Below, piece after piece: positions 1,768 to 63,681 of a DNA stretch of 64,000 nt. Below the pieces are notes generated by a model that was not told the DNA's origin, did no database searches, and saw nothing but the letters and a program-made list of their open reading frames with translations. The DNA lies in assembly GCA_017481595.1 (NCBI GenBank), contig JAFUOY010000022.1:40713-104712 (forward strand), written 5' to 3'. A program made the translations under genes and the position numbers. The number at the start of each line of letters is the position of its first letter. Within the stretch, counting starts at the first letter, position 1. This DNA comes from Clostridia bacterium (lineage in GTDB: Bacteria > Bacillota > Clostridia > Oscillospirales > CAG-272).

Positions 1768-2703
1768 ATGTGTACCGTTATATCAAAATCTATTGACTGT
1801 CTTTATTTTGGCAGAAATATGGATATAGAAAAAGGCTTTGGCGAGGAGATGGTATTCATACCCCGCAATTTTCCTCTTAGCTTTAAGGCAGAGAGGACGG
1901 TAGAGCATCACAATGCTTTCATGGGAATAGGCGCTGTTATGGACGGCTATCCAATGATGGCGGAGGGAGTAAACGAGCACGGACTTTGTATGGCGGGGCT
2001 CAATTTCGTGGGGAACGCATTTTACGGGGATATAAAGGATAAAAAAGAAAACGTAGCCCCCTACGAGCTTATTCCCTTAATACTTTCCACCTGTAAAAGC
2101 GTAAGGGAGGCAAAGCGCCGACTTGAATATATAAGCTTGATTTCCGTTCCATTTAAAGAAAACGTACCCCTTCCCACGTTGCATTTTTATATAGCGGATC
2201 AACACGGAGCGTTGGTTTTTGAAGCTATGAAAAACGGAAATCATATATACGATAATTTCGTAGGGGTTCTTACTAATAATCCTCCCTTTAGTGCGCAAAT
2301 GGACTCTCTTGCAAACTATGAAAATTTGACAAATCAGCCACGTATCGGCGCTTTTTCCCTAGGTAAGCCCTATTCCCTTGGGCTTTCCTCCTATGGCTTG
2401 CCGGGGGACTTTTCCTCAAGCTCAAGATTTGTCCGCGCTGTGTACCTGAAGCATTTTTCAGTATGGGAAAAGGGTGAGGAGATATCACAGATGCTACACC
2501 TGTTAGATAGTGTTGCCGTACCGAAGGGCGCGGTTATAAACGGAAGCGGAGAATACCATTACACTCTTTACCAAAGCTGTATTGATACGTCGGAATGTAT
2601 TTATTATTTCCGTACCTACGGCAGTATAAATACCCATCTTGTGCGTATGGATCATTTTAATGCGGATTCAGATAAGATCCAAACTGTTGATATTTATAAA
2701 TAA
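1768..2703 (+). CDS. bsh: choloylglycine (conjugated bile salt) hydrolase, Ntn-hydrolase family
   Basis: The true start is MCT (Cys2 nucleophile) with a GGAGGG RBS upstream. GRNMD, NEHGL and LTNNPPF motifs match CBAH/BSH enzymes as I remember them. The tracked start at 1552 is a spurious extension overlapping the previous gene. Confidence 0.85.
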   Translation: MCTVISKSIDCLYFGRNMDIEKGFGEEMVFIPRNFPLSFKAERTVEHHNAFMGIGAVMDGYPMMAEGVNEHGLCMAGLNFVGNAFYGDIKDKKENVAPYELIPLILSTCKSVREAKRRLEYISLISVPFKENVPLPTLHFYIADQHGALVFEAMKNGNHIYDNFVGVLTNNPPFSAQMDSLANYENLTNQPRIGAFSLGKPYSLGLSSYGLPGDFSSSSRFVRAVYLKHFSVWEKGEEISQMLHLLDSVAVPKGAVINGSGEYHYTLYQSCIDTSECIYYFRTYGSINTHLVRMDHFNADSDKIQTVDIYK

Positions 2704-2704
2704 G

Positions 2705-3412
2705 CTATATTTCATCCCTGAAAAACATCATCTGGCGCTTTTGTCTTCGGTGCCAGCTGATAAATCCGTAAAGGTCGTTTATCAAAAACATAGTAAAGCA
2801 GATTATCATAGGAGTGTAGGAAGGGTCGCTTAATGCGGCAAACACCCAGAGGATAATAAGAATAAGATCGTTACAAGCGTAGCCGATTGCGTAAAATGGG
2901 CTTCTTAAAAACGTAAGATAAGCCGCAATAAAGCTTGTGAGAACGGAAAGGGTGCTAACGATAAGCTTTGCGTTATTTAACGCCTTGAGAATGAAAAAGA
3001 ACCCAACGGTTACAAAAGCGGATATAATAAGCATTATTGCTATCTGCTTTTTCGTAACGCGGCTTATTTTTACCTCATTTGTTTCTCCGTAAGGATTTTT
3101 CATCCAGGAGATAAGGGAAAGCACCGCCATAGGCGCGCTCATACCAAGGTATGTTATCATCTCTCCGTAGTAGCGCAGGCGCAAAGAAATTATTCCGTAA
3201 AAAACAGAGAATATTATAATAAGCACCTGTCCAACCACCATACCCTTGGCAACGAAAATAAGGGCGGTAAGTCCTATTACAGAGGCTAAAACGGTCATAA
3301 TTTCTCCCGTGCCCGATATGGCGTAGGAAATAATAACTCCCAAAATAGAGCATAGCCACAGTATTTTTTCAAACAAGGTCAGCGATAAGATAAGCTCCTT
3401 GATCCTTTTCAT
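2705..3412 (-). CDS. pnuC: nicotinamide riboside (PnuC-family) transporter
   Basis: Polytopic membrane protein with PnuC-like segments (ISWMKNPYG, FMINDLYGF-like C-terminus). I moved the start to the ATG at 3412, which follows GGAGGG. The tracked 36-aa Cys-rich extension covers the leader terminator. Confidence 0.75.
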   Translation of the reverse strand: MKRIKELILSLTLFEKILWLCSILGVIISYAISGTGEIMTVLASVIGLTALIFVAKGMVVGQVLIIIFSVFYGIISLRLRYYGEMITYLGMSAPMAVLSLISWMKNPYGETNEVKISRVTKKQIAIMLIISAFVTVGFFFILKALNNAKLIVSTLSVLTSFIAAYLTFLRSPFYAIGYACNDLILIILWVFAALSDPSYTPMIICFTMFLINDLYGFISWHRRQKRQMMFFRDEI

Positions 3413-3419
3413 GATCCCT

Positions 3420-3479
3420 CCAAAACAAAAACAGCATCCGCAACACATCTTCAATGACCTAATGATGTGTAACGAATGC
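3420..3479 (-). terminator. intrinsic terminator inside the pnuC leader (attenuator)
   Basis: On the minus strand, GCATTCGTTACACATC (3479-3464) pairs with GATGTGTTGCGGATGC (3449-3434): 16 positions with 2 G-U pairs and 1 mismatch. It is followed by TGTTTTTGTTTT and lies between the promoter and the RBS. Confidence 0.65.
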
Positions 3480-4573: not shown

Positions 4574-6403
4574 ATGTTAAAAGAAAAAATATTCAGAAAC
4601 AAGGGCTTTAAATATACCCCCGAGATATTTTTTAAGACGGTTATATGCTCTTGGTTTTTTACAAGCTTTTTAAATTTCTTGTTTTATGAGAAAAAGTACA
4701 CCGATCTTGCCTTCGTACAGGAGAAAATCTTATATATCGTATTGACGGCGGTCATAATGCTGGTGCTTACTCTTGGCTTAACTGCAATAGAGTATTACTT
4801 GGAGGGAAAGAAAATTACGGAATATTCCTTAATTTTCTCCTTTGTGGCGTTTGCCCTTATGACCTTATACGAGGGTAATGCTGATTTTGGCACCGCCTTG
4901 GCTCTTTGTATAGTCGGCGCCATGGTTGCCGCCTATGCGGTAAACAAGGGATGCTTTGATTTTGGAAATGCGGATATAAATAAAAGAACAAAAATAATAT
5001 ACGTTGCTATTATCACATCTGTTTTTGCATTTGTCCTTGCATCCTACGGAGTTTTGAGATATTGGACCTACAGCGCGCCAAACTACGACTTCGGTATTTT
5101 CTGCCAGATGTATTACAATCTGAGCAAGACCTTGATTCCCAACACCACCTGTGAAAGAGATTATCTTCTTTCCCACTTTGCCGTTCATTTTTCGCCTATT
5201 TATTACCTTCTTTTGCCTGTATATTGGATATTCCCCTTTGCGGAGACGCTGCAAATCTCCCAGGCGGTCATTTTATATAGCGGAATTATTCCATTGCTCC
5301 TTTTGGCAAAGGAAAAGGGTTTAAGCAATAAGTTAAGCGCCGCCTTGACCGTTATTTACTGCGCATATCCCGCCCTTTCTATGGGATGTAATTTCGACTT
5401 CCACGAAAATTGCTTCCTCCTTCCCCTCCTTTTGTGGATGTTCTACTTCTGCGAGAGGGAAAAATATATTCCTATGGCTATCTTTACCGTCCTTGCCTTA
5501 ATGGTTAAGGAGGACGTATTTATATACATTGTGATATACGGCATCTTTCTTATAGCCTCAAGAAGAAAATACAAGCTCGGCTCTATAATGTGCGCAGGGG
5601 CTATTGCATACTTTGTAATGGCGTATACCATCCTTACCAAAAACGGATTGGGCATAATGGATGACTCCCGCTTTGGTAATCTTATATTTGGGGATGGCGG
5701 ACTTGTAGGCGTTGTAAAGACCTTCTTTACAAACCCCGCCTACACCTTATCCCAGATGTTTGTGGACGGAAATAACGGACTTACCAAAATAATCTACATT
5801 ATTGAGATGCTGGGCGCTCTTGCATTCTTGCCCTTCATTACGAAAAAGATGTCAAGATATATTTTGATCGCTCCCATCCTTATAAATCTTTTGTCCGCTT
5901 ACCGCTATCAATGTGAAATCGGATTTCAGTATCATTTCGGAATTACGGCGTTCCTCTTTTACGCTACGGTGCTTAACCTTGCGGATCTTAAGCCCAATCT
6001 GAAAAGATATCTTACTATAGTTGCCGTTATGGTGTCAGTATTTTTGTATGTTGCGGTTTTCTTCCCAAACGTGGGCGGCAGATACGAAGCCTGGCGCAAT
6101 GATAAGGAAATGTACAAAAATCTTGATGAGGTACTTGAAACCCAGATACCCGACGATGCTTCCGTTGCCTGTAACACCTACCTTTTGTCCCACTTGAGCA
6201 ACAGAGAAGAGATATATGAAATTTATTATCACTTTGACAAAAACGGAAACGTAAAGACGGACGTTGACTACGTTGTTTATTTCACACGCGGCGCTATGTC
6301 ACAGAATGAAAAGAACAGTATCCCCCAATTCAAGCAGGCAGGATATAAGGAAATATACAGAGATGACCTTATATTTATTTACGTTAGTCCCGATATGCAA
6401 TAA
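4574..6403 (+). CDS. DUF2079-like polytopic membrane protein
   Basis: 609 aa with more than 10 predicted TM helices. The NYDFGIFCQ and HFSPIYYLL blocks resemble DUF2079. Confidence 0.6.
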   Translation: MLKEKIFRNKGFKYTPEIFFKTVICSWFFTSFLNFLFYEKKYTDLAFVQEKILYIVLTAVIMLVLTLGLTAIEYYLEGKKITEYSLIFSFVAFALMTLYEGNADFGTALALCIVGAMVAAYAVNKGCFDFGNADINKRTKIIYVAIITSVFAFVLASYGVLRYWTYSAPNYDFGIFCQMYYNLSKTLIPNTTCERDYLLSHFAVHFSPIYYLLLPVYWIFPFAETLQISQAVILYSGIIPLLLLAKEKGLSNKLSAALTVIYCAYPALSMGCNFDFHENCFLLPLLLWMFYFCEREKYIPMAIFTVLALMVKEDVFIYIVIYGIFLIASRRKYKLGSIMCAGAIAYFVMAYTILTKNGLGIMDDSRFGNLIFGDGGLVGVVKTFFTNPAYTLSQMFVDGNNGLTKIIYIIEMLGALAFLPFITKKMSRYILIAPILINLLSAYRYQCEIGFQYHFGITAFLFYATVLNLADLKPNLKRYLTIVAVMVSVFLYVAVFFPNVGGRYEAWRNDKEMYKNLDEVLETQIPDDASVACNTYLLSHLSNREEIYEIYYHFDKNGNVKTDVDYVVYFTRGAMSQNEKNSIPQFKQAGYKEIYRDDLIFIYVSPDMQ

Positions 6404-6434
6404 AAAAGAGTTGCCACACGGCAACTCTTTTTTT
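6402..6434. terminator. bidirectional intrinsic terminator
   Basis: AGAGTTGCC-ACAC-GGCAACTCT stem-loop flanked by an A-run and a T-run, between convergent genes. Confidence 0.8.
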
Positions 6435-7347
6435 ACACGAAAATATTTATTATACCGATTACAAATCCAATAAGGGCGCCAAGGTTTATAACCGCGCCAA
6501 GCTCCCTTTTCATAACGGACATACAAAGTTCCTCAAGCTCCTTGACGGACATATCGTTTACCTTGCGCTCAACCACGGAGGCAATATCTATTTTTCCCTT
6601 CAGGGTAGAGAGTGATTTTTTTATTATCACCTCGTAAATTTCTTCGATTTTGTTCTTGATAAGGTCCTTATCTATTTCGTAGCCCTCAAAATACTGTGAA
6701 ATGGGAGTCTCGTACACGCTGCTAAGCTTTTCCTCCGCCTTAAGACGGATAACCTCGCTTCCGTCCGTGTCAATGAATTCGTTTACCTTGTCCTTTAACT
6801 GCTCAAGTAAGGAATTTATCAGCTCGTCGGTGATAAACATACCAAACATTCCGAGGGAGGAGCGCTTTTCTTTGATTACGTCTGCGCCTCTTTCGGAAAT
6901 AATAGCCCCGATATCTATCTCCCTTGCCCCCTCGATTATTTTATCGGTAACAAGGGTGCAGGTTTTGTCCTTTAATTCAAGGGATTTTTCCTCGCTTGTG
7001 ATATTAAGGCTAAGCTCCATAGGAGTTTTTGATATAAGCTCCTCAGCCTTTGCGTATATGGCGTCGCTGACGGTATTCTTTATGTTGTCGGAGATAAGTA
7101 TTTCCTTAAGGTCGTCCTCCGTAAAAAGCTCGTTTCCCACCGCGTTACTGATAGCCTTTGCCAGCTTTGGCTTTCTTCTTGGTATAATACCGGGTGTAAA
7201 TGGGAGAGTAAGACCGAATATTTTTATGGGCTTATATGGGTGAAAAAGCATTTTTACCGCAATAAAGTTTGTAATATAGCCTATCAGAGCGCCGATAAGG
7301 GGTCCCGATATATAATTAAGCACTGTCATAATTTCATTCCAGTCCAT
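6433..7347 (-). CDS. DUF445 family membrane protein
   Basis: The N-terminal GYITNFIAVKMLFHPYKP...PFTPGIIPRRK signature and C-terminal TM helix are typical of DUF445. Confidence 0.75.
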   Translation of the reverse strand: MDWNEIMTVLNYISGPLIGALIGYITNFIAVKMLFHPYKPIKIFGLTLPFTPGIIPRRKPKLAKAISNAVGNELFTEDDLKEILISDNIKNTVSDAIYAKAEELISKTPMELSLNITSEEKSLELKDKTCTLVTDKIIEGAREIDIGAIISERGADVIKEKRSSLGMFGMFITDELINSLLEQLKDKVNEFIDTDGSEVIRLKAEEKLSSVYETPISQYFEGYEIDKDLIKNKIEEIYEVIIKKSLSTLKGKIDIASVVERKVNDMSVKELEELCMSVMKRELGAVINLGALIGFVIGIINIFV

Positions 7348-15280: not shown

Positions 15281-15345
15281 CTAATTAGATAGATGTGTGA
15301 TAAAAACACTATAAAGGATTTATTTTGAAAAGGAGGATAAAATTT

Positions 15346-17700
15346 ATGAAAAAATTAATGTCAATATTGTTAGTGTTACTTATGCTGACGTCCGTTCTTG
15401 CCTCCTGCGGTGGAAATGATGAAACTACAACAACGGAATTTCCCACAACAGAAGCACCTACAACGGAAGCGCCAACAACCGAAGCTCCCACTACGGAAGC
15501 GCCAACTACGGAAGCTCCTACAACGGAAGTGCCAACAACCGAAGCACCTACAACGGAAGCGCCAACAACCGAAGTACCAACAACGGAAGCTCCCACTACG
15601 GAAGTCCCTACAACACTTCCTCCCGCAGATGACAACGCTCCGAAGGAAATGGTTACAATTACCTTTGATACTAAAGGAGGACCAACGATTCCGAGCCAAA
15701 TAGTAGAAAAAGGCTCCTTAGTAAGAAAACCTGATGGTCCATCAAGATTAGGCTATATTTTTTACGGTTGGTACATAAACGATAAACAATGGTTGGGCAG
15801 ATTTGTTGCTGAGGAAGATACCGTTGTTGAAGCAAAATGGATTCCTGCAGTATATAATATAAAATATGTATTAAACGGCGGCGTAAATAACGGAGAAAAT
15901 AAAACTTCACATACCATAGAGGCTGATGGATTTGTATTGAAGGACCCAGTCAAGGAAGGCGCGAACTTCCTTGGTTGGTATACTGATTACGAATTTAAAA
16001 ATAAGATTACCGAAATTAAAAAAGGTGATATAGGAAATCTGGTATTATATGCAAAATGGGATGATCATAATACAGATACAGGTAATAACGGATCTGGCAG
16101 TACAGGTAATAACGGATTTGACAATACAGGTATAAGTGTTAACGGACTTACACTTGTACTCGATGGAAATGGATATAAAGTAACAAAATGTGCAAAATAT
16201 GTAGATAAAGCGGTAATTCCCGCAACACACGAAGGGTTGCCTGTTACCTCTATAGGTGACGGTGCATTTAGATACTGTGATTATCTTAAAAGCATTACAA
16301 TACCCAATAGCGTTACTTCTATAGGTGTTGACGCGTTTTACAGGTGCTCTTCTCTTACAGATATTACAATACCTGATAGTGTTACTTCTATAGGCGCCTG
16401 CGCGTTTTACGAGTGCACTTCTCTTACAAGCATTAAAATACCCAATGGCGTTACGTCTATAGGTTTTGGTGCGTTTGCCTGTTGCTCATCCCTTACAAGT
16501 ATTACGATACCCAATAGCATTACTTCCATAGATAACAGTGTTTTTTCAGGTTGCGAATCTCTTACAAGTATTACAATACCCGATAGCGTTACATCTATAG
16601 GTTATGAAGCGTTTTATGAGTGCACTTCTCTTACAAGTATAAATGTTGGTGAAAATAACGAGAATTATAAATCCATAGACGGTGTATTGTTCAGCAAAGA
16701 CGGAAAAACCTTAATTGCTTATCCGGCAGGAAAAGGAACGTCATATAGTATACCAAATCACGTTACTTCTATAGGTTATGGCGCATTTTACGGTTGTTCT
16801 TCTCTTGCAAGCGTTACAATACCCGATAGTGTTACTTCTATGGGTGAAAATGCATTTCGCGGTTGTTCTTCTCTTACAAGTGTTACAATCCCCAATAGCG
16901 TTACTTCTATAGAATGGAATGCGTTTCTTAATTGTACTTCCCTTGCGAATGTTACACTGCAAAACGGTGTTTTATCTATAGGTGATGATGCATTTGCAGG
17001 TTGCGAATCTCTTACAAGTATTACAATACCCGATAGCGTTACATCTATAGGTGACTACGCATTCTCCGGTTGCAAATCTCTTAAGAATGTTACTATGCAA
17101 AATAGTGCTCTATCTATAGGCGACTCCGCCTTCAAGGATTGCACGTCTATTGAAAGTCTTACAATTTCCAATAGAGTTACTAAGATACACAAACGCGCGT
17201 TTGAGGGCTGTACTTCCATTACAAATGCTACAGCTCCTGCAATGGCATTAAAATATATTCCAAAAGACAAGTTGAAAACGGTTACCATTTCCGGCGGCGC
17301 TGTTGTAGATGGGCTTGACGGATGCACGTCTCTTAAGAGCATTACGATACCGGATAGTGTTGTTTCCATAAATGAAGATGCATTTGAAGGCTGCACGTCT
17401 CTTAAGAGTATTACAATACCGGATAGCGTTGTTTCTATAGGTTGGAATGCGTTTAAGGGCTGTACTGCTCTTACCGACATTAAAATACCAAGCAGTGCTT
17501 TATCTATAGGCGGCCGCGCCTTTGAGGGATGTACGTCTCTTACAAGCATTACAATTCCCGAAAGCGTTACTGCTATGGGTAAAGACGTATTTATAGGTTG
17601 TTCTTCCCTTACGGTACGTTGTGAAATAGCCAGCAAGCCAACGTTCTGGAGATCCGAATGGAACTCTACAAATATACCTGTAGTTTGGGGTACAAAGTAA
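15346..17700 (+). CDS. surface lipoprotein with PTTEA linker, Listeria-Bacteroides (Flg_new) repeats and BspA-type leucine-rich repeats
   Basis: Start is the ATG after AGGAGG. Lipobox is LASCGG. GYIFYGWY and FLGWYTD repeat motifs are present. There are more than 15 LRR units of the form ITIPDSVTSIGxxAFxxCxSL. Confidence 0.85.
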   Translation: MKKLMSILLVLLMLTSVLASCGGNDETTTTEFPTTEAPTTEAPTTEAPTTEAPTTEAPTTEVPTTEAPTTEAPTTEVPTTEAPTTEVPTTLPPADDNAPKEMVTITFDTKGGPTIPSQIVEKGSLVRKPDGPSRLGYIFYGWYINDKQWLGRFVAEEDTVVEAKWIPAVYNIKYVLNGGVNNGENKTSHTIEADGFVLKDPVKEGANFLGWYTDYEFKNKITEIKKGDIGNLVLYAKWDDHNTDTGNNGSGSTGNNGFDNTGISVNGLTLVLDGNGYKVTKCAKYVDKAVIPATHEGLPVTSIGDGAFRYCDYLKSITIPNSVTSIGVDAFYRCSSLTDITIPDSVTSIGACAFYECTSLTSIKIPNGVTSIGFGAFACCSSLTSITIPNSITSIDNSVFSGCESLTSITIPDSVTSIGYEAFYECTSLTSINVGENNENYKSIDGVLFSKDGKTLIAYPAGKGTSYSIPNHVTSIGYGAFYGCSSLASVTIPDSVTSMGENAFRGCSSLTSVTIPNSVTSIEWNAFLNCTSLANVTLQNGVLSIGDDAFAGCESLTSITIPDSVTSIGDYAFSGCKSLKNVTMQNSALSIGDSAFKDCTSIESLTISNRVTKIHKRAFEGCTSITNATAPAMALKYIPKDKLKTVTISGGAVVDGLDGCTSLKSITIPDSVVSINEDAFEGCTSLKSITIPDSVVSIGWNAFKGCTALTDIKIPSSALSIGGRAFEGCTSLTSITIPESVTAMGKDVFIGCSSLTVRCEIASKPTFWRSEWNSTNIPVVWGTK
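15427..15615 (+). repeat. tandem 15-nt repeat encoding (PTTE[AV])x12 linker
   Basis: Direct reading of the sequence. Units vary at synonymous positions. The minus-strand ORFs across this stretch are shadows. Confidence 0.9.
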
Positions 17701-39941: not shown

Positions 39942-40171
39942 TGCATTTGTAGACACAAATGCATATAGTGAAATATTTTGCTTTGCAAAATGTGAAATAA
40001 TGTTCTGTCGAACATTGTGAAATATCTCGCTCTGCTCGATGTGAAATGAAATAAATCCCCTCACGCCCGCAGGCATTTCACTCGCTGAAAGCGAATTTCA
40101 CACACGAAGTGCATTTCACAAATCCCGTAAGGGATTTATTTCGTTGCGTAGTGTCCTTAAGGGCACTACGC
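39942..40171. repeat. word-hairpin array A (GTGAAAT x4 / ATTTCAC x3-4 with interleaved unique mini-hairpins)
   Basis: Direct reading of the sequence; see findings for coordinates. Confidence 0.8.
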
Positions 40172-40201
40172 TAAAATCCGTCCTCTTTCTATTTGTAAGT
40201 T

Positions 40202-55894: not shown

Positions 55895-56085
55895 ATAGTT
55901 TAGAGTTATGAGGCTCGCTTTCGCTCACCGTTATAAGCTTGCATAGCAAGCGTTATGATATGATTGCCCATCTAACCTATAACTTGGCGAATCCAATCAT
56001 AACGATACGAAGTATCTCATAACTCATAACTTGCCCGCAAGGGCAATCATAGTTTAGCGTGAATACTCCGTTAAGAGTATCACGC
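55895..56085. repeat. word-hairpin array B (GTTATGA/GTTATAA x3, TCATAAC x4-5, with interleaved unique mini-hairpins)
   Basis: Direct reading of the sequence; see findings for coordinates. Confidence 0.8.
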
Positions 56086-56106
56086 CAATTGGATGCACGG
56101 TTTTTA

Positions 56107-58134
56107 TTATTTTTCGTATATACAACAGCCCTGTACCTTTGCAACGACGGGGGCAGTATAGGAATCAAAGATAAACAGGGAATACTGTCTTTCCTCCTCA
56201 CCGGAGTCAAGTCTGTAAAATATCTTATTCATTATCTCGTCAATATCCTCGTCACTCGTATCATTTTGGAATCTGATAATAAAGGTGCTTGCAAAAAAGT
56301 CCTCGGTAATTATCTTCTTTACAAGATAGATATGGGTTATTTTACCCTGTCCTACGTTTACAATATGGTCTGTAAGCTCATTTTTAAGATCTTCGTCCAT
56401 ATCGTCAAGGGCAAGATCGTCATCTGGCGAAACGTAGCTTAACTGACTGAAAACGTCTTTTTGCTTTTGCTGTATCTCCACGCTCTTCTCCCGAAATTCG
56501 TCAAGCTCCTTCTGTAATCCCATCATACAAAGGAATTTACCGATAAGCTCAAGCCCTGCATCGATGTAATTGGAATTTTCCTCAATTGCCGTGTAAATAT
56601 CGTCAATGCCGCTCTTGTCGTATTTTAAAAGAAGGGCGTGACCTCTTGACATATAGGCTTCAGCCACGGACGCCTTTGTCTTGCTCCGTTTAATAAGCTC
56701 GTCACTTAACTCGTAAAGCTCATCTACCATACTTAATTTGTGCATCGCGCTCATGATTGGACGCGCCTCCTCAGAGGTAAGCTCTCTTTTGTTTTCGCGC
56801 CATTCGTTCACTATACTAAGGGGCTCAAGATATTCCTCTTTTCGCTCATTTTCGTAGTTGTCCTTGCCATTTTCATATATCTGATTGTCAATACGGGCAA
56901 GAGCTTTTTCAAATTCCCTGCGGTACTCTCCGTCAGAAGGAAGAGGTAATGTGTTAAGCTCACTTACTCCCACAGCCTCAAGTCGGCTGCGCACTATGGG
57001 ATGGGATGCGCTTCGCGCCTGTATTTCAGAAGAAATAAGCTTATTCCAAAATTCCTTTCTTTCGGGCAGCGCTTTGCGAAACGCGCCTAAAAGTATTTCT
57101 ATAACGTTTGGTCTGCGACTTTCGGGCTCGTAGAAATTATCCTTCATATGCATATAAAGCTCGTTAGAGAAATATTCGTTGTAGGCAAGCTTTATAAGAG
57201 AGGATGCGTACGCCTCGGGGTCGCCGTGCTCCAGAATGATCCTGTCGGCTATTTCCTCAATAAGCTGGGAAGAGGTCGTTCTGAATGAAAAATACTCAAA
57301 GGTGTATACAAAATCGCAATAGCGGAACAGCATACTGATTATTTTATTGTATTTTGTATCGTCAGCCTGGGTTATGTAATTAAATAAGCGCTGCTCCTTG
57401 TCCATGGGCTTTGTCGTGTGGGCAAATTCGTGAAGAAGCACCTGGTAAAGCTCCTCCTCCGTAAGTATATCAAGAAGCGCAACGCCAAGCTGGAGAGAGA
57501 ATACCTTACCGATTCTTGCAATGCCCGCATTACAGTCGGCAAGGAACACTATTTTAATTTCACCCTTTATACCAACAGTCTTTTGCGCCTTGTAGGCTAT
57601 GGAATAAATGTGTGGGTAGTCGCTTTCCGATACGTACTCGGAAAAATCGTACTTTTCCCCTGCAAGCTGTATTCTGTTGAAATATCCGATAATTACGTAA
57701 GCGGGGAAAATAGTTATTGCGGGGCTTAATTTACTTATGCCCAAAGCAAATGTGATAAATAAAGCGACAGCAAAGAGGATAAAGGAATACAAGCCAATAA
57801 AAAGGCGTAGGCGTACTATTTTTCCCGTAGCCCTTTCAAGGCTTTTGCGTGCCTCCGCCTGTCTTTCGAGGAAAAGATTTTGAGAGTCGGCAACGCTCAT
57901 ATCAAGCTTTTTCTTGTATCCCTTTGCAAGAAAGTAGTTTAGCGGAAGCAATATTATTGCTATAAAGAGTATCATACCCAAGGCTACGTAGCCCATTACG
58001 TTAACCTGCTCGTCAGTCAGCTTTAATGAGGTAACCGCGCCCAAAGCAAAGGTAAGTACACAAATTATTACGGTAAGGACCACGCGCGGGATGAAGCCCT
58101 TTTCTATGGATTTTTTATTGTTCATATTTTTCAC
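56107..58134 (-). CDS. membrane-bound HEXXH zinc metallopeptidase-like protein (M48/M56-like)
   Basis: N-terminal TM helices, an LLHEFAHT motif and a long helical C-terminal region. Confidence 0.55.
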   Translation of the reverse strand: MKNMNNKKSIEKGFIPRVVLTVIICVLTFALGAVTSLKLTDEQVNVMGYVALGMILFIAIILLPLNYFLAKGYKKKLDMSVADSQNLFLERQAEARKSLERATGKIVRLRLFIGLYSFILFAVALFITFALGISKLSPAITIFPAYVIIGYFNRIQLAGEKYDFSEYVSESDYPHIYSIAYKAQKTVGIKGEIKIVFLADCNAGIARIGKVFSLQLGVALLDILTEEELYQVLLHEFAHTTKPMDKEQRLFNYITQADDTKYNKIISMLFRYCDFVYTFEYFSFRTTSSQLIEEIADRIILEHGDPEAYASSLIKLAYNEYFSNELYMHMKDNFYEPESRRPNVIEILLGAFRKALPERKEFWNKLISSEIQARSASHPIVRSRLEAVGVSELNTLPLPSDGEYRREFEKALARIDNQIYENGKDNYENERKEEYLEPLSIVNEWRENKRELTSEEARPIMSAMHKLSMVDELYELSDELIKRSKTKASVAEAYMSRGHALLLKYDKSGIDDIYTAIEENSNYIDAGLELIGKFLCMMGLQKELDEFREKSVEIQQKQKDVFSQLSYVSPDDDLALDDMDEDLKNELTDHIVNVGQGKITHIYLVKKIITEDFFASTFIIRFQNDTSDEDIDEIMNKIFYRLDSGEEERQYSLFIFDSYTAPVVAKVQGCCIYEK

Positions 58135-59932: not shown

Positions 59933-59963
59933 AAAAATGCGACCACATGGTCGCATTTTTTTT
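59933..59963. terminator. bidirectional intrinsic terminator
   Basis: AAATGCGACC-ACAT-GGTCGCATTT flanked by A- and T-runs. A near copy lies at 63652-63681. Confidence 0.8.
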
Positions 59964-59981
59964 AAATGAAATCTGTATAAA

Positions 59982-63651: not shown

Positions 63652-63681
63652 AAAAAATGCGACCCTGTGGTCGCATTTTTT
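63652..63681 (-). terminator. intrinsic terminator (bidirectional form)
   Basis: AAATGCGACC-CTGT-GGTCGCATTT, immediately after the TrkA-C gene stop. Confidence 0.75.

Follow-up and report, generated by a model that had tools for sequence, protein, structure and literature searches.

A word-and-hairpin array in a gut Clostridia genome as the core of a probable small mobile element with terminator loops as its target

Array B, a run of short hairpins separated by copies of the seven-nucleotide word GTTATGA or its complement, is an internal part of a copy, about 280 nt long, of a modular multi-copy element. The copy runs on the minus strand from position 56085 to position 55809 of the window, by which is meant the whole 64,000-nucleotide stretch of a Clostridia bacterium contig (JAFUOY010000022.1) that was analysed. 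Probably the element is a small, hitherto undescribed mobile one of gut Clostridia that enters the loops of terminator hairpins, and array B forms the core of a copy that has no gene and has partly decayed. The element occurs in uncultured gut Clostridia (Oscillospiraceae, Ruminococcaceae, Acutalibacteraceae and relatives), and no description of it was found in the literature.

An earlier note on this DNA had described the array at 55895-56085, and all the words and hairpins that it listed are present where it placed them. A module-by-module match also bears out its view that array B repeats the layout of another array in the window, array A, with a different word and different hairpins. The extent that it gave is real but covers only the middle of a longer modular unit, which goes on leftwards to 55809 through hairpins at 55837-55889 and 55808-55822. 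The note read the array on the plus strand; the informative strand is the minus. Over a 201-nt stretch the minus strand folds at -77.8 kcal/mol (z -7.7 against shuffles) and the plus strand at -67.1 kcal/mol (z -6.7), and the functional strand of array B is the minus. In the order of that strand, the unit consists of a 5' terminal hairpin (P0), a partial word, a hairpin, three to four words with short hairpins and a centre that pairs with the start. After the centre comes a complementary half, in which complementary words alternate with longer hairpins (one of them with tandem G.A pairs), followed by a long hairpin and the remnant of a 3' module. The features are as follows.

39960-40172, minus strand: array A, a sister element from the GTGAAAT word family, whose first half is what matches Rfam Gut-1.
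56086-56104, minus strand: 5' flank, an A-run and CCGTGCATCC, the left arm of a host-type terminator stem.
56057-56085, minus strand: P0, the 5' terminal hairpin GCGTGATACTC-TTAACG-GAGTATTCACGC, containing the left terminal inverted repeat.
56047-56052, minus strand: W0, the partial word CTATGA; with the 5' arm of hp1 it makes up the 5' strand of the long-range helix P1.
56031-56046, minus strand: hp1, hairpin TTGCCC-TTGC-GGGCAA, found also in the GTGAAAT, GTGAAGT and TGATGTT families.
55977-56030, minus strand: first half-array, with GTTATGA at 56024-56030, 56017-56023 and 55997-56003 and the variant GTTATAG at 55977-55983.
56004-56016 and 55984-55996, minus strand: first-half hairpins GATAC-TTC-GTATC and TTGGATTCGCCAA, the latter damaged by a change at 55992.
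55959-55969, minus strand: centre GGGCAATCATA, which repeats the 3' arm of hp1 and adds the complement of W0.
55905-55958, minus strand: second half-array, with TCATAAC at 55952-55958 and 55905-55911 and the variant TTATAAC at 55930-55936.
55937-55951 and 55912-55929, minus strand: second-half hairpins GCTTGC-TAT-GCAAGC and the tandem-G.A hairpin GGTGAGC-GAAA-GCGAGCC.
55890-55904, minus strand: linker TCTAAACTATACAAA, conserved in B-family copies.
55837-55889, minus strand: T-module, the long hairpin CAGAAAAAAGAGCAGAC...GTTTGCTCTTTCTG, 98% identical to locus L430.
55809-55836, minus strand: 3' module remnant TTCGTTATATGGGTTTGGGCTGAGCCCA, homologous to what follows the four-helix-bundle gene's stop codon in L405 and L390.
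55732-55768, no strand assigned: bidirectional terminator AAAAAAGAAGTATG...CATACTTCTTTTTT, which serves the convergent gene pair and lies outside the unit.

Several parts take on another meaning on the minus strand. The 11-bp hairpin at 56057-56085, described in the note as the end of the array, is real and is the conserved 5' terminal module, hence the head of the unit. The TATAAC at 55978 is there as part of a longer variant word, CTATAAC (reverse complement GTTATAG), and the TCATAG at 56047 is in fact the conserved partial word W0. The filler at 55912-55929, which the note had called degenerate, forms a conserved hairpin: it has tandem G.A/A.G mismatches, its loop is GAAA, and it recurs in other copies and in other word families. 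Part of what had been taken for a 19-nt centre, 55959-55969, is complementary at 11 of 11 positions to 56041-56051; this pairing is helix P1, and P1 and hp1 are mutually exclusive. The linker repeats the TAAACTAT found after P0, giving a direct repeat at 55895 and 56049. This direct repeat, ATAGTTTAG, was considered as a target-site duplication and rejected, since it lies within the unit and B-family copies conserve it. A first guess that the long hairpin at 55837-55889 was an ancestral host terminator was likewise given up once the hairpin proved to be one of the element's conserved modules. A consensus scan for promoters and terminators, on the whole uninformative, found no intrinsic terminator in 55600-56250, and no G+C-rich hairpin with a U-tract that would make the array a terminator cluster; what follows each array hairpin is a word, where a terminator would have a T-run. 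In B the scan gave a single promoter-like match, a weak one (9/12), and the window copy is without an open reading frame.

The words do not lie together by accident. GTTATGA occurs 16 times in the 64 kb, both strands counted, five of them within 55905-56030, where the Poisson expectation is 0.022 per 126 nt (P of at least five, 4e-11). A pattern scan with P0 found 85 metagenome loci with differing flanks. Behind the near-identical P0, and before the same long hairpin and 3' module, stand at least seven word families. Any one copy uses a single 7-nt word, with the complement of that word in the second half, while between sub-families the word differs and the frame is nearly identical; across copies, words are 92% exact. 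This uniformity is not accounted for by simple pairing needs, and hybrids with non-complementary halves exist (L003, L120, L424). The words were also tried as anticodon-loop mimics (xU-NNN-Rx); on inspection of the sequences this fits GTGAAAT and GTTATGA and fails for CATCATT and CTAAATT, and it was rejected. Copies of the element resemble one another where their surroundings do not: over 278 nt L439 and the window agree at 88.5% of positions while their flanks are unrelated, and array A recurs at 84-98% identity in metagenome-assembled genomes (MAGs) in which the flanking DNA has no similarity to the window. The module order of B is found in about 35 full GTGAAAT elements.

The hairpins vary in sequence between positions and between copies, and it is their pairing that is kept. 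Across six B-family copies pairing holds in 99.1% of stem cells, and both sides have changed at 12 pairs, a level of covariation that none of 500 shuffles reached; P0 itself has one compensatory pair change, in L389. For P1, a perfect complement of at least 9 nt is found in 62% of 66 elements, against 12% when an element is paired with another element's centre, and the helix covaries across families in at least ten sequence versions. The hairpin stems are thus maintained by compensatory changes, with the first half closed by a long-range helix. The earlier note had proposed comparing strains for co-variation of words and arms, and the answer is that stems are kept by compensation and words stay constant within a copy. 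Palindromes are common in convergent gaps and the unit is absent from some strains, as one would expect of a chance cluster of terminator-like palindromes or of slippage debris that belongs to no family. Against the word clustering, the homologous copies at unrelated loci (72-88% identity), the covarying stems and an architecture common to about 100 elements, such an origin has a negligible probability and we regard it as refuted.

The fold of the array is strand-specific. Mismatches in stems are G.A in 61 cases against T.C in six, and G.T/G.U wobble is nearly absent (five in about 1000 stem pairs, against seven A.C). Loops take the form C-T(N)NC-G in 57 of 68 cases in the first half, 54 of the 68 being triloops, and C-G(N)NA-G in 50 of 82 in the second. 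Word variants compatible with G.U and those compatible with the opposite strand showed no asymmetry, with too few variants for one to appear. A strand-specific fold, a GAAA tetraloop, tandem G.A pairs, strong stem covariation and a minus strand that folds 10.7 kcal/mol better than the plus are all what would be expected of a free-standing, Gut-1-like structured non-coding RNA, with words between its hairpins that bind protein or RNA as a sponge or scaffold, and with mobility as an incidental matter. Array B also lies in the 3' UTR position of a 675-aa gene, and array A matches a motif that Rfam files as an sRNA. We nevertheless judge such an RNA quite unlikely, given the near absence of wobble and the predominance of triloops in the first half. 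There is moreover no room for a promoter, as tRNA-linked copies begin at the T-run of the preceding terminator and the promoter-like match in B is weak. At least seven words in one frame would require as many partners, the unit is dispensable among close strains, and the window copy is decaying.

The relation to Gut-1 is nevertheless close. Rfam lists Gut-1 as an sRNA; its layout has four identical, single-stranded 7-nt words, three short hairpins between them and a partial word ahead of the first, and the original description gave it no function or context and a distribution of "human gut only" (Weinberg et al. 2010, PMC2864571). The membership threshold of the covariance model RF01706 is its gathering cut-off of 50 bits; array A scores 74.2 bits, its other half scores 43 bits on the opposite strand, and in 55650-56200 the model finds nothing of array B at E<=10. 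From 56052 to 55977 on the minus strand, B consists of CTATGA, hp1, two GTTATGA, a hairpin, GTTATGA, a hairpin and GTTATAG, a word and hairpin layout identical to that of Gut-1, and it has hp1 in common with a Gut-1 sub-group (L021, L103, L105). The difference is that the Rfam model is tied to GUGAAAU, whereas the word of B is GUUAUGA, and that the model spans just the first half of an element of at least about 190 nt. What Rfam describes as the Gut-1 motif is the first half-array of elements in the GTGAAAT sub-family; here such motifs belong to a mobile unit and turn up in Akkermansia as well as in many animal-gut MAGs.

Evidence for movement comes from the ends and the sites of the element. 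Complete gene-less copies are 274-361 nt long, have terminal inverted repeats of about 22 nt and lie within the loop of a host intrinsic terminator with both arms intact. In 12 complete copies the inverted repeats are identical at 15-19 of 22 positions (P0 against the inverted 3' end), and the flanks of the element are the two terminator arms, which in seven copies are exact complements of 9-15 nt. One occupied site can be compared with empty ones: the flanks of L447 are 99.1% and 98.6% identical to those of L462 and L463, and L447 has 368 nt in place of 3 nt of the loop of AAAAACGCTCGC-TGACAA-GCGAGCGTTTTTTT. No clear target-site duplication emerges from the junctions, which are A/T-rich (..TTA|unit|ATT..), with TTTTA on both sides in L381 and none in others. 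P0 also occurs solo in terminator loops (L371, L436, L443). Many copies adjoin tRNA genes; the tRNA-linked GTGAAAT copies are without P0 and follow an intact terminator, so there are at least two insertion styles in the family. Clustering of neighbouring genes gave no recurrent transposase or recombinase near the copies. A blastn search of plasmid and phage collections with a complete unit gave no match, and word-only pattern scans of viral contigs gave almost entirely chance matches or tandem repeats, with just a few genuine GTGAAAT (Gut-1-type) elements and not one GTTATGA array, so that there is no phage link.

The tRNA-linked loci also bear on another version of a cis-acting site, in which the unit, array and genes together, is a cassette; site-specific recombination would exchange it at terminators or the 3' ends of tRNAs, acting on single-stranded DNA in folded form. 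Integron attC sites have two 7-nt core words, forming an inverted pair, that flank one long imperfect palindrome, and they are associated with intI. The arrays are like attC in being structure-defined, strand-specific sites of variable sequence with 7-nt core words in inverse-complement pairs. Genes are found between two direct copies of terminator and array (L036, 95.5% over 247 nt; L069), tandem units with different words follow a tRNA in L458, an identical unit lies beside two different tRNAs (L452 and L458), and hybrid arrays change word family between units (L424). In contrast to attC, the words are direct repeats around each of five to seven small hairpins and TCATAAC/GTTATGA departs from the RYYYAAC/GTTRRRY consensus; no intI or other integrase gene was found nearby. 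Insertion into terminator loops with terminal inverted repeats resembles transposition more than cassette capture, and on balance an attC-like site is unlikely.

Longer relatives carry genes. Complete gene-bearing copies of 1.1-1.4 kb have the same ends and array as the gene-less ones, and replace the long hairpin by a promoter, a four-helix-bundle gene of the PF05635/TIGR02436 family ("23S rRNA intervening sequence protein") and a cargo gene that varies; the T-module of gene-less copies stands where full-length copies have this promoter and gene. L390 and L405 are complete between terminator arms, their protein matches PF05635 (E 1e-25 to 1e-28) and TIGR02436, and they encode no transposase. 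PF05635 genes are present in L366, L448 and others as well, and in 1.28 Mb of array loci all 15 such genes lie 50-90 nt downstream of the array and co-oriented with it. There the last word lies directly against the -35 hexamer in the promoter of the four-helix-bundle gene. This would suit a reading of the words as half-sites in duplex DNA, first direct and then inverted, for a sequence-specific protein (as in iterons, an operator, or partition or integrase arm-type sites), with the hairpins as spacers; the forward-then-reverse layout, the exactness of the words across copies and the many positions beside tRNA genes, a classical integration site, would suit it too. We consider it very unlikely, as the spacing of the words in array B is irregular (7, 20 and 19-26 nt), the fillers are selected for pairing rather than sequence, and the strong strand asymmetry of mismatches and loop types is unexpected for duplex sites. 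Gene-less copies such as B also lack a promoter to regulate, and the word changes without a matching change of protein, L448 and L405 both having ATATCAC and proteins that are strongly diverged by eye. The idea that the four-helix-bundle protein reads the word was set aside on the same ground, proteins with the same word (L405, L448) being no more alike than those with different ones; this comparison was made by inspection of the sequences and therefore counts just weakly against it.

Among known systems, the closest in overall form are bacterial MITEs and modular intergenic repeats such as Correia/NEMIS, BOX, RUP, bcr1 and MITEPgRS, the last with an internal minisatellite (PMC10969869, PMC3184786, PMC4596501). 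Like these, the gene-less copies are short, non-coding, multi-copy, intergenic and strongly structured; complete ones end in terminal inverted repeats, copies are scattered over many unrelated loci, and occupied and empty sites occur in close relatives. They derive by internal deletion from a longer gene-bearing relative. That relative, with the same ends, encodes a four-helix-bundle protein and cargo, and no recognisable transposase. The target here is the loop of an intrinsic terminator, and the interior is a constrained, ordered hairpin array with a 7-nt linker word that is uniform per copy and differs by sub-family. The intervening sequences (IVSs) of 23S rRNA are insertions carrying an S23p/four-helix-bundle ORF (PMC4990558). 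The family, though not the window copy, which has no ORF, shares with them insertion in the apical loop of a stable hairpin, bounding inverted repeats that extend the stem, an optional PF05635 gene, and a sporadic and strain-variable distribution. It differs in location: there is no rRNA gene within the window, the unit sits between protein genes and not in helix 25 or 45 of 23S rRNA, the insertion lies in a terminator hairpin or in the region that follows a tRNA gene, and no RNase III excision is implied. A word-hairpin array is not known from reports on IVSs, which are what the comparison covered. REP/BIME sequences are, like the copies, palindromic extragenic units at gene 3' ends; they are repeated genome-wide, and their mobilising enzyme, RAYT, is known. 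The conserved P0, in occurring solo in terminator loops, is REP-like, with the difference that REP units hold their sequence, while here the stems vary and the linkers alone are constant. Mobile DNA that targets hairpins has precedents in IS1397/ISKpn1 in REP loops, IS110-family elements in REPs and group IIC introns beside terminators, and these encode their own transposase or reverse transcriptase.

At the B locus itself, strains with at least 90% protein identity show three states: no element, a GTTATGA element or a GTGAAGT element. Absence from related strains, as in L125, L002 and L001, had been named in the earlier note as evidence against the array; it leaves the structure standing, because the unit is missing there as an insertion and not as unconstrained sequence. 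In the empty strains the terminator sequence differs from the arms that flank occupied alleles, so the polymorphism looks like whole-gap replacement by recombination and not like simple insertion. The partner arm of CCGTGCATCC is missing in the window and present in the allelic locus L126, which has AAAAATCGTGCATCC...GGATGCACGGTTTTTTT around its unit. Similarity of the window copy to complete copies stops at 55809; the last ~75 nt with the right inverted repeat are gone, leaving only the left one, in P0. Compared with a near-identical strain (L123), the window has three differences over 8019 nt, two of which damage the array, one in a word and one in a stem. The window copy thus appears to be a passenger that has lost its right end and is gathering disruptive changes, and at most it may add stable structure to the 3' end of the transcript of the 675-aa gene. 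For the 675-aa protein, a protein-based scan of genome contigs and an exact look-up returned nothing. GC skew across the window tracks local gene orientation and does not give the direction of replication.

For the element that we take to be mobile, the array would act as a folded single strand, either as single-stranded DNA during movement or as RNA in the 3' UTR of the upstream gene. It is likely to be the cis-acting part that the element must keep, because no other internal part survives in all gene-less derivatives and in the tRNA-linked variant too. For the words, a role in a cis-acting single-strand fold is tentatively favoured. Folded single-stranded DNA would be slightly favoured over RNA because G.T wobble is nearly absent and C-GNA-G triloops and tandem G.A pairs are present. 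Candidate movers are the four-helix-bundle protein, a host enzyme or recombination. A wider reading, which is possible and offered tentatively, is that word-hairpin arrays are cis-acting, single-strand-folded sites of an unrecognised class of mobile elements that home to hairpin loops and have the four-helix-bundle gene as their sole conserved gene. If true, the homing targets would be the loops of stable DNA hairpins in terminators, on the 3' side of tRNAs and, by extension, in rRNA helices. Classical rRNA intervening sequences and the scattered PF05635 genes in cas/DGR loci would then belong to the same class, and the family-specific word would be a self-recognition code that works through pairing of word and complement (W:W').

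For gut bacteria, insertions that split the bidirectional terminators of convergent genes give rise to differences between strains in their 3' UTRs and make contigs break in gut metagenome assemblies. Gut-1, an orphan since 2010 as a gut-only sRNA of unknown function, can be re-read as half of a modular mobile repeat, many word versions of which are invisible to a sequence-tied covariance model. The PF05635 family is very abundant, and the questions of its function and of how it relates to rRNA intervening sequences are about 30 years old. PF05635/TIGR02436 proteins here gain a concrete and repeatable genomic context, and with defined ends, a terminator-loop target and natural pairs of occupied and empty sites, both IVS-type movement and the role of the four-helix-bundle protein become testable.

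The words and hairpins that the earlier note described for array B are present in the region, in a convergent gap between two genes:

55143..55730, plus strand, Peptidase_S24-like gene
56107..58134, minus strand, gene for a 675-aa protein with no Pfam match

Counting both strands, the 64-kb window has GTTATGA 16 times, with five occurrences inside 126 nt. Against a background of 11 per 63.9 kb only 0.022 are expected in 126 nt, so that P(≥5) is ∼4e-11. A chance origin of the array is excluded. The 201-nt array B stretch folds far better than dinucleotide shuffles on both strands (minus strand −77.8 kcal/mol, z −7.7; plus strand −67.1 kcal/mol, z −6.7). An Rfam search of array B at E≤10 returned only weak, chance-level matches (best E 0.004). 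Elsewhere in the window, seven ACGGAAG heptamers at 15321-15530, clustered at the 5' end of an ORF (15325..17700), resemble a coding tandem repeat.

A scan of the window for locally repeated 7-mers found a sole other site at 39960-40150, with the word GTGAAAT/ATTTCAC. This is array A, identified by Rfam Gut-1 matches and by module order:

39960-40172, canonical on the minus strand, complete GTGAAAT-family element

Its right half matches Gut-1 (RF01706) on the minus strand with 74.2 bits (cut-off 50), and its left half on the plus strand with 43 bits (same cut-off). Array A also has copies at 84–98% identity in MAGs, with flanking DNA that has no similarity to the window. The consensus of Gut-1 has precisely the order word-hairpin-word-hairpin-word-hairpin-word. 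The original paper gave the motif no function and knew it from human gut metagenomes only (PMC2864571). A pattern scan for three spaced GTGAAAT words, with one genome per species, gave >120 loci, mostly in gut Clostridia MAGs and many of them at contig ends. Very often a forward set is followed 30–100 nt on by a reverse set, and there are several per genome. A comparison of about 35 complete elements shows one fixed module order on one strand, here called canonical (W, the 7-nt word; W', its complement):

1, terminator or long hairpin P0
2, W0, a partial word
3, hairpin hp1
4, three W with short hairpins (9–13 nt) between them
5, small central hairpin
6, the 3' arm of hp1 repeated, then the complement of W0
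7, four W' with longer hairpins (15–19 nt) between them

The earlier note had proposed that array B has the layout of array A with another word, and each module does indeed have its counterpart in array B, which reads on the minus strand and uses GTTATGA:

56085-56057, minus strand, P0, in canonical order
minus strand, W0, CTATGA, in canonical order
minus strand, hp1, TTGCCC-TTGC-GGGCAA, in canonical order
minus strand, first half: W, W, hairpin, W, hairpin, variant word
minus strand, centre: GGGCAATCATA
minus strand, second half: W', hairpin, W', hairpin, W'

The centre of array B is complementary, at 11/11 positions, to W0 together with hp1's 5' arm. This long-range helix, which competes with hp1 for the same bases, is formed by at least 10 different sequences across word families; among 66 elements, 62% reach ≥9 perfect pairs, versus 12% when another element's centre is used. 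Array B adds a new word family to this motif, for which Rfam has one version only and no context; no description of the element was found in the literature searched.

Six B-family copies were aligned, from the window, the near-identical strain L123, and four other loci (L439, L389, L431 and L379). The co-variation of hairpin arms that the earlier note proposed to look for is seen here: 99.1% of stem cells pair and both sides have changed in 12 of 38 pairs, although in some of these cases an entire hairpin has been exchanged, so that they are not point covariation. None of 500 shuffles reached this level, and sliding the partners lowers pairing to 17–41%. Two element types provide ∼180 array hairpins, and on the canonical strand their stems have 61 G.A/A.G mismatches versus 6 T.C/C.T, most of the G.A mismatches coming from one recurrent tandem-G.A hairpin. 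The filler that had been called degenerate is in fact this hairpin (GGTGAGC-GAAA-GCGAGCC in array B). Loops are also polar: 57 of 68 first-half loops read C-T(N)NC-G, mostly as triloops, and 50 of 82 second-half loops read C-G(N)NA-G. The 3' half on each strand therefore consists of W' and G(N)NA-loop hairpins, a dyad pseudo-symmetry. The internal array is kept by selection on pairing and word identity, and it is strand-specific.

G.T wobbles are no more frequent than A.C mismatches (5 versus 7 in ∼1000 pairs). Structured RNAs normally use G.U, and DNA forms very stable C-GNA-G triloops and tandem sheared G.A pairs; for these reasons folded single-stranded DNA is slightly favoured over RNA. 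A trans-acting RNA of the Gut-1 type is a possible but unlikely reading: promoters are lacking, wobble pairs are nearly absent, many loops are triloops, there are many different words, and close strains can do without the array.

The frame of the element is shared more widely than its words. With the P0 of array B (GCGTGATACTCTTAACGGAG...) as a pattern, 85 loci were found on metagenome contigs, and at least seven word families sit behind nearly identical P0 (GTTATGA, GTGAAGT, ATGAAAT(C), TCGATAT, TGATGTT, GTGATAT and TGAATTG), with one hybrid array (L424). A long hairpin, CAGAAAAAGAG...CTCTTTCTG, and one 3' module are common to them all. The words of one copy are all identical, while frames that are otherwise nearly identical can have wholly different word sets. 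Over 56085-55809 the window has 88.5% identity to L439, which comes from another sample and has unrelated flanks; the unit therefore includes the hairpins at 55837-55889 and 55808-55822. Genome loci provide further words in the same layout, for example CATCATT (L020), CTAAATT (L090), and CGAGATT and ATATAAC in Akkermansia (L006), and a few arrays (L003, L120) combine non-complementary halves. As the Akkermansia arrays show, word-hairpin arrays cross phylum boundaries. On a 1.3-kb contig (L423), opposite TCGATAT-family units at 158-185 and 1142-1169 read outwards from the ends, with ∼950 nt of unrelated sequence between them. In ruminant Clostridia MAGs (L003 4830-5120, L017 3760-3900) a second, REP-like repeat with a GTAG head, TGTAGGGGTCG..GACGACCC, adjoins word-hairpin arrays.

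Close strains differ at the array B locus. L123 represents the window's strain and differs from the window 3 times over 8019 nt; two of the three changes fall in the array, each damaging a consensus feature of the window copy (for at least 2 of 3 inside 190 of 8019 nt, P is ∼0.002 if they are evenly spread):

55935, C to T on the minus strand, in a word, window versus L123
55992, C to A on the minus strand, in a stem, window versus L123

Among strains in which the 672/673-aa protein is ≥90% identical, L123 and L124 share the window's GTTATGA unit, L126 and L127 have a GTGAAGT-word unit in its place and a different neighbour, and L125 and L002 have only a terminator. A more distant relative, L001 (82% identity), has the window's neighbours and just a 52-nt terminator. 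L125 lacks window 51503-56102 (4.6 kb), with both sides 97–98% identical; this indel comprises five plus-strand genes (51831..55730) and, at one edge, element B. Since the terminator of the empty strains and the arms that flank the occupied alleles do not have the same sequence, the polymorphism probably reflects gap replacement by recombination and not a single clean insertion. The window copy also lacks the last ∼75 nt, including the right repeat, and the partner terminator arm.

In 12 complete copies (274–361 nt) the 3' end (..CTCCGCTAAGAACATCACCC) is the inverted 5' end, with 15–19/22 identity. Most complete copies have an A-run and stem on one side and the complementary stem and a T-run on the other, so that their flanks are the two arms of a bidirectional terminator, exact complements over 9–15 nt in seven copies. 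A solo P0 is found inside terminator loops at three loci (L371, L436, L443). One occupied/empty pair settles insertion into the terminator loop. In L447, a 368-nt ATGAAAT-type unit lies between a Lactamase_B-like gene and a MATE gene; in L462 and L463 the same genes, at 98.6% and 99.1% DNA identity, are 33 nt apart, and this gap is an intact terminator, AAAAACGCTCGC-TGACAA-GCGAGCGTTTTTTT. The unit takes the place of 3 loop nt and both arms are kept. No target duplication is evident. Plasmid and phage collections gave no match to the unit, true arrays are rare in viral contigs, and no transposase or recombinase recurs among the genes neighbouring the copies. The element is modular, multi-copy and insertion-polymorphic, with inverted-repeat ends and terminator loops as its target. 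Two near-identical bidirectional terminators, AAAAATGCGACC-ACAT/CTGT-GGTCGCATTTTTT, are found in the window at gene ends 3.7 kb apart (59937-59964 and 63652-63680). At L451 1-1300, an element with a gene for a large serine recombinase (PF00239, PF07508, PF13408) at its end is inserted between the expected tRNA position and a terminator-plus-array unit, with the junction ..TTTG|CCAGAAAAG.

Some relatives carry genes. L390 (1429 nt) and L405 (1144 nt) have a P0 of the array B type and a GTGATAT/ATATCAC array, followed in order by:

TTGACT, a 16–17 nt spacer and TATAAT
a 118-aa gene
the module that follows the long hairpin in gene-less copies
a cargo gene (HAD-like in L390, no assignment in L405)
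a terminator, then the right inverted repeat

Here too a host terminator encloses the complete unit, with one arm on each side. The 118-aa protein of these gene-bearing relatives belongs to PF05635, 23S_rRNA_IVP (E 1e-25 to 1e-28), and also to TIGR02436, four helix bundle protein. The gene-less copies, array B included, thus look like derivatives in which promoter and ORF were swapped for a ∼50-nt hairpin. The window reads TAT GGGTTTGGGC where full copies have a TAG stop codon and GGGTATGGGC. The array adjoins the −35 hexamer in gene-bearing copies, as might suit words acting as duplex protein-binding sites, but the irregular spacing and the strand asymmetry make this highly improbable.

A tblastn search of 1.28 Mb of array-bearing loci found 15 four-helix-bundle genes, one in Akkermansia, all of them co-oriented with an array and 50–90 nt downstream of it; for three, the array has words without hairpins. 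Such hairpin-less forward/reverse arrays precede four-helix-bundle genes at L024 ∼1440-1500, L088 ∼5420-5620 and L119 ∼5350-5550 (for example CTCTTCAC.. then GAAGAGA.., after a tRNA and terminator). In about 15 of 26 ARAGORN-checked loci with complete GTGAAAT elements, the element directly follows a tRNA gene and terminator; many different anticodons are represented, and tRNA and element always point the same way. A unit made up of terminator, array, four-helix-bundle gene and MazG-like gene occurs in identical form after two different tRNAs, and a second unit with another word can come next. Genes also lie between two direct copies of terminator and array (L036, L069). At 2300-3450 and 5600-6900, the Akkermansia MAG L006 has tandem ∼440-nt units, each with a GTGAAAT and a CGAGATT array, as well as ATATAAC/GTTATAT arrays on each side of a four-helix-bundle gene. 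An attC-like cassette site, a specific form of the favoured cis-site reading, would fit tandem and duplicated units, but with no integrase it is rather doubtful.

The four-helix-bundle family is extremely abundant (for the P0053-P0172 set, E<1e-10 in 7999 of 8000 scored candidates), and one exact protein sequence is found in 644 index blocks. Most contigs carrying these proteins are only 1–5 kb long, which suggests that their repeated context breaks assemblies. PF05635 proteins are treated as of unknown function in the literature, and are known from rRNA intervening sequences (IVS), which are selfish helix-loop insertions with terminal inverted repeats. They also occur in cas loci, and the Avd protein of diversity-generating retroelements is one of them (PMC4990558, PMC3936711, PMC10053308).

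Taken as a whole, the element is a new form of two known kinds, MITE-like repeats and IVS-like insertions. Its array is probably the cis-acting part that the element needs, because it is kept in every derivative and at the 5' boundary of every unit, and it probably works as a folded single strand. The window copy is probably a passenger in decay, located in the 3' UTR of the gene for the 675-aa protein.
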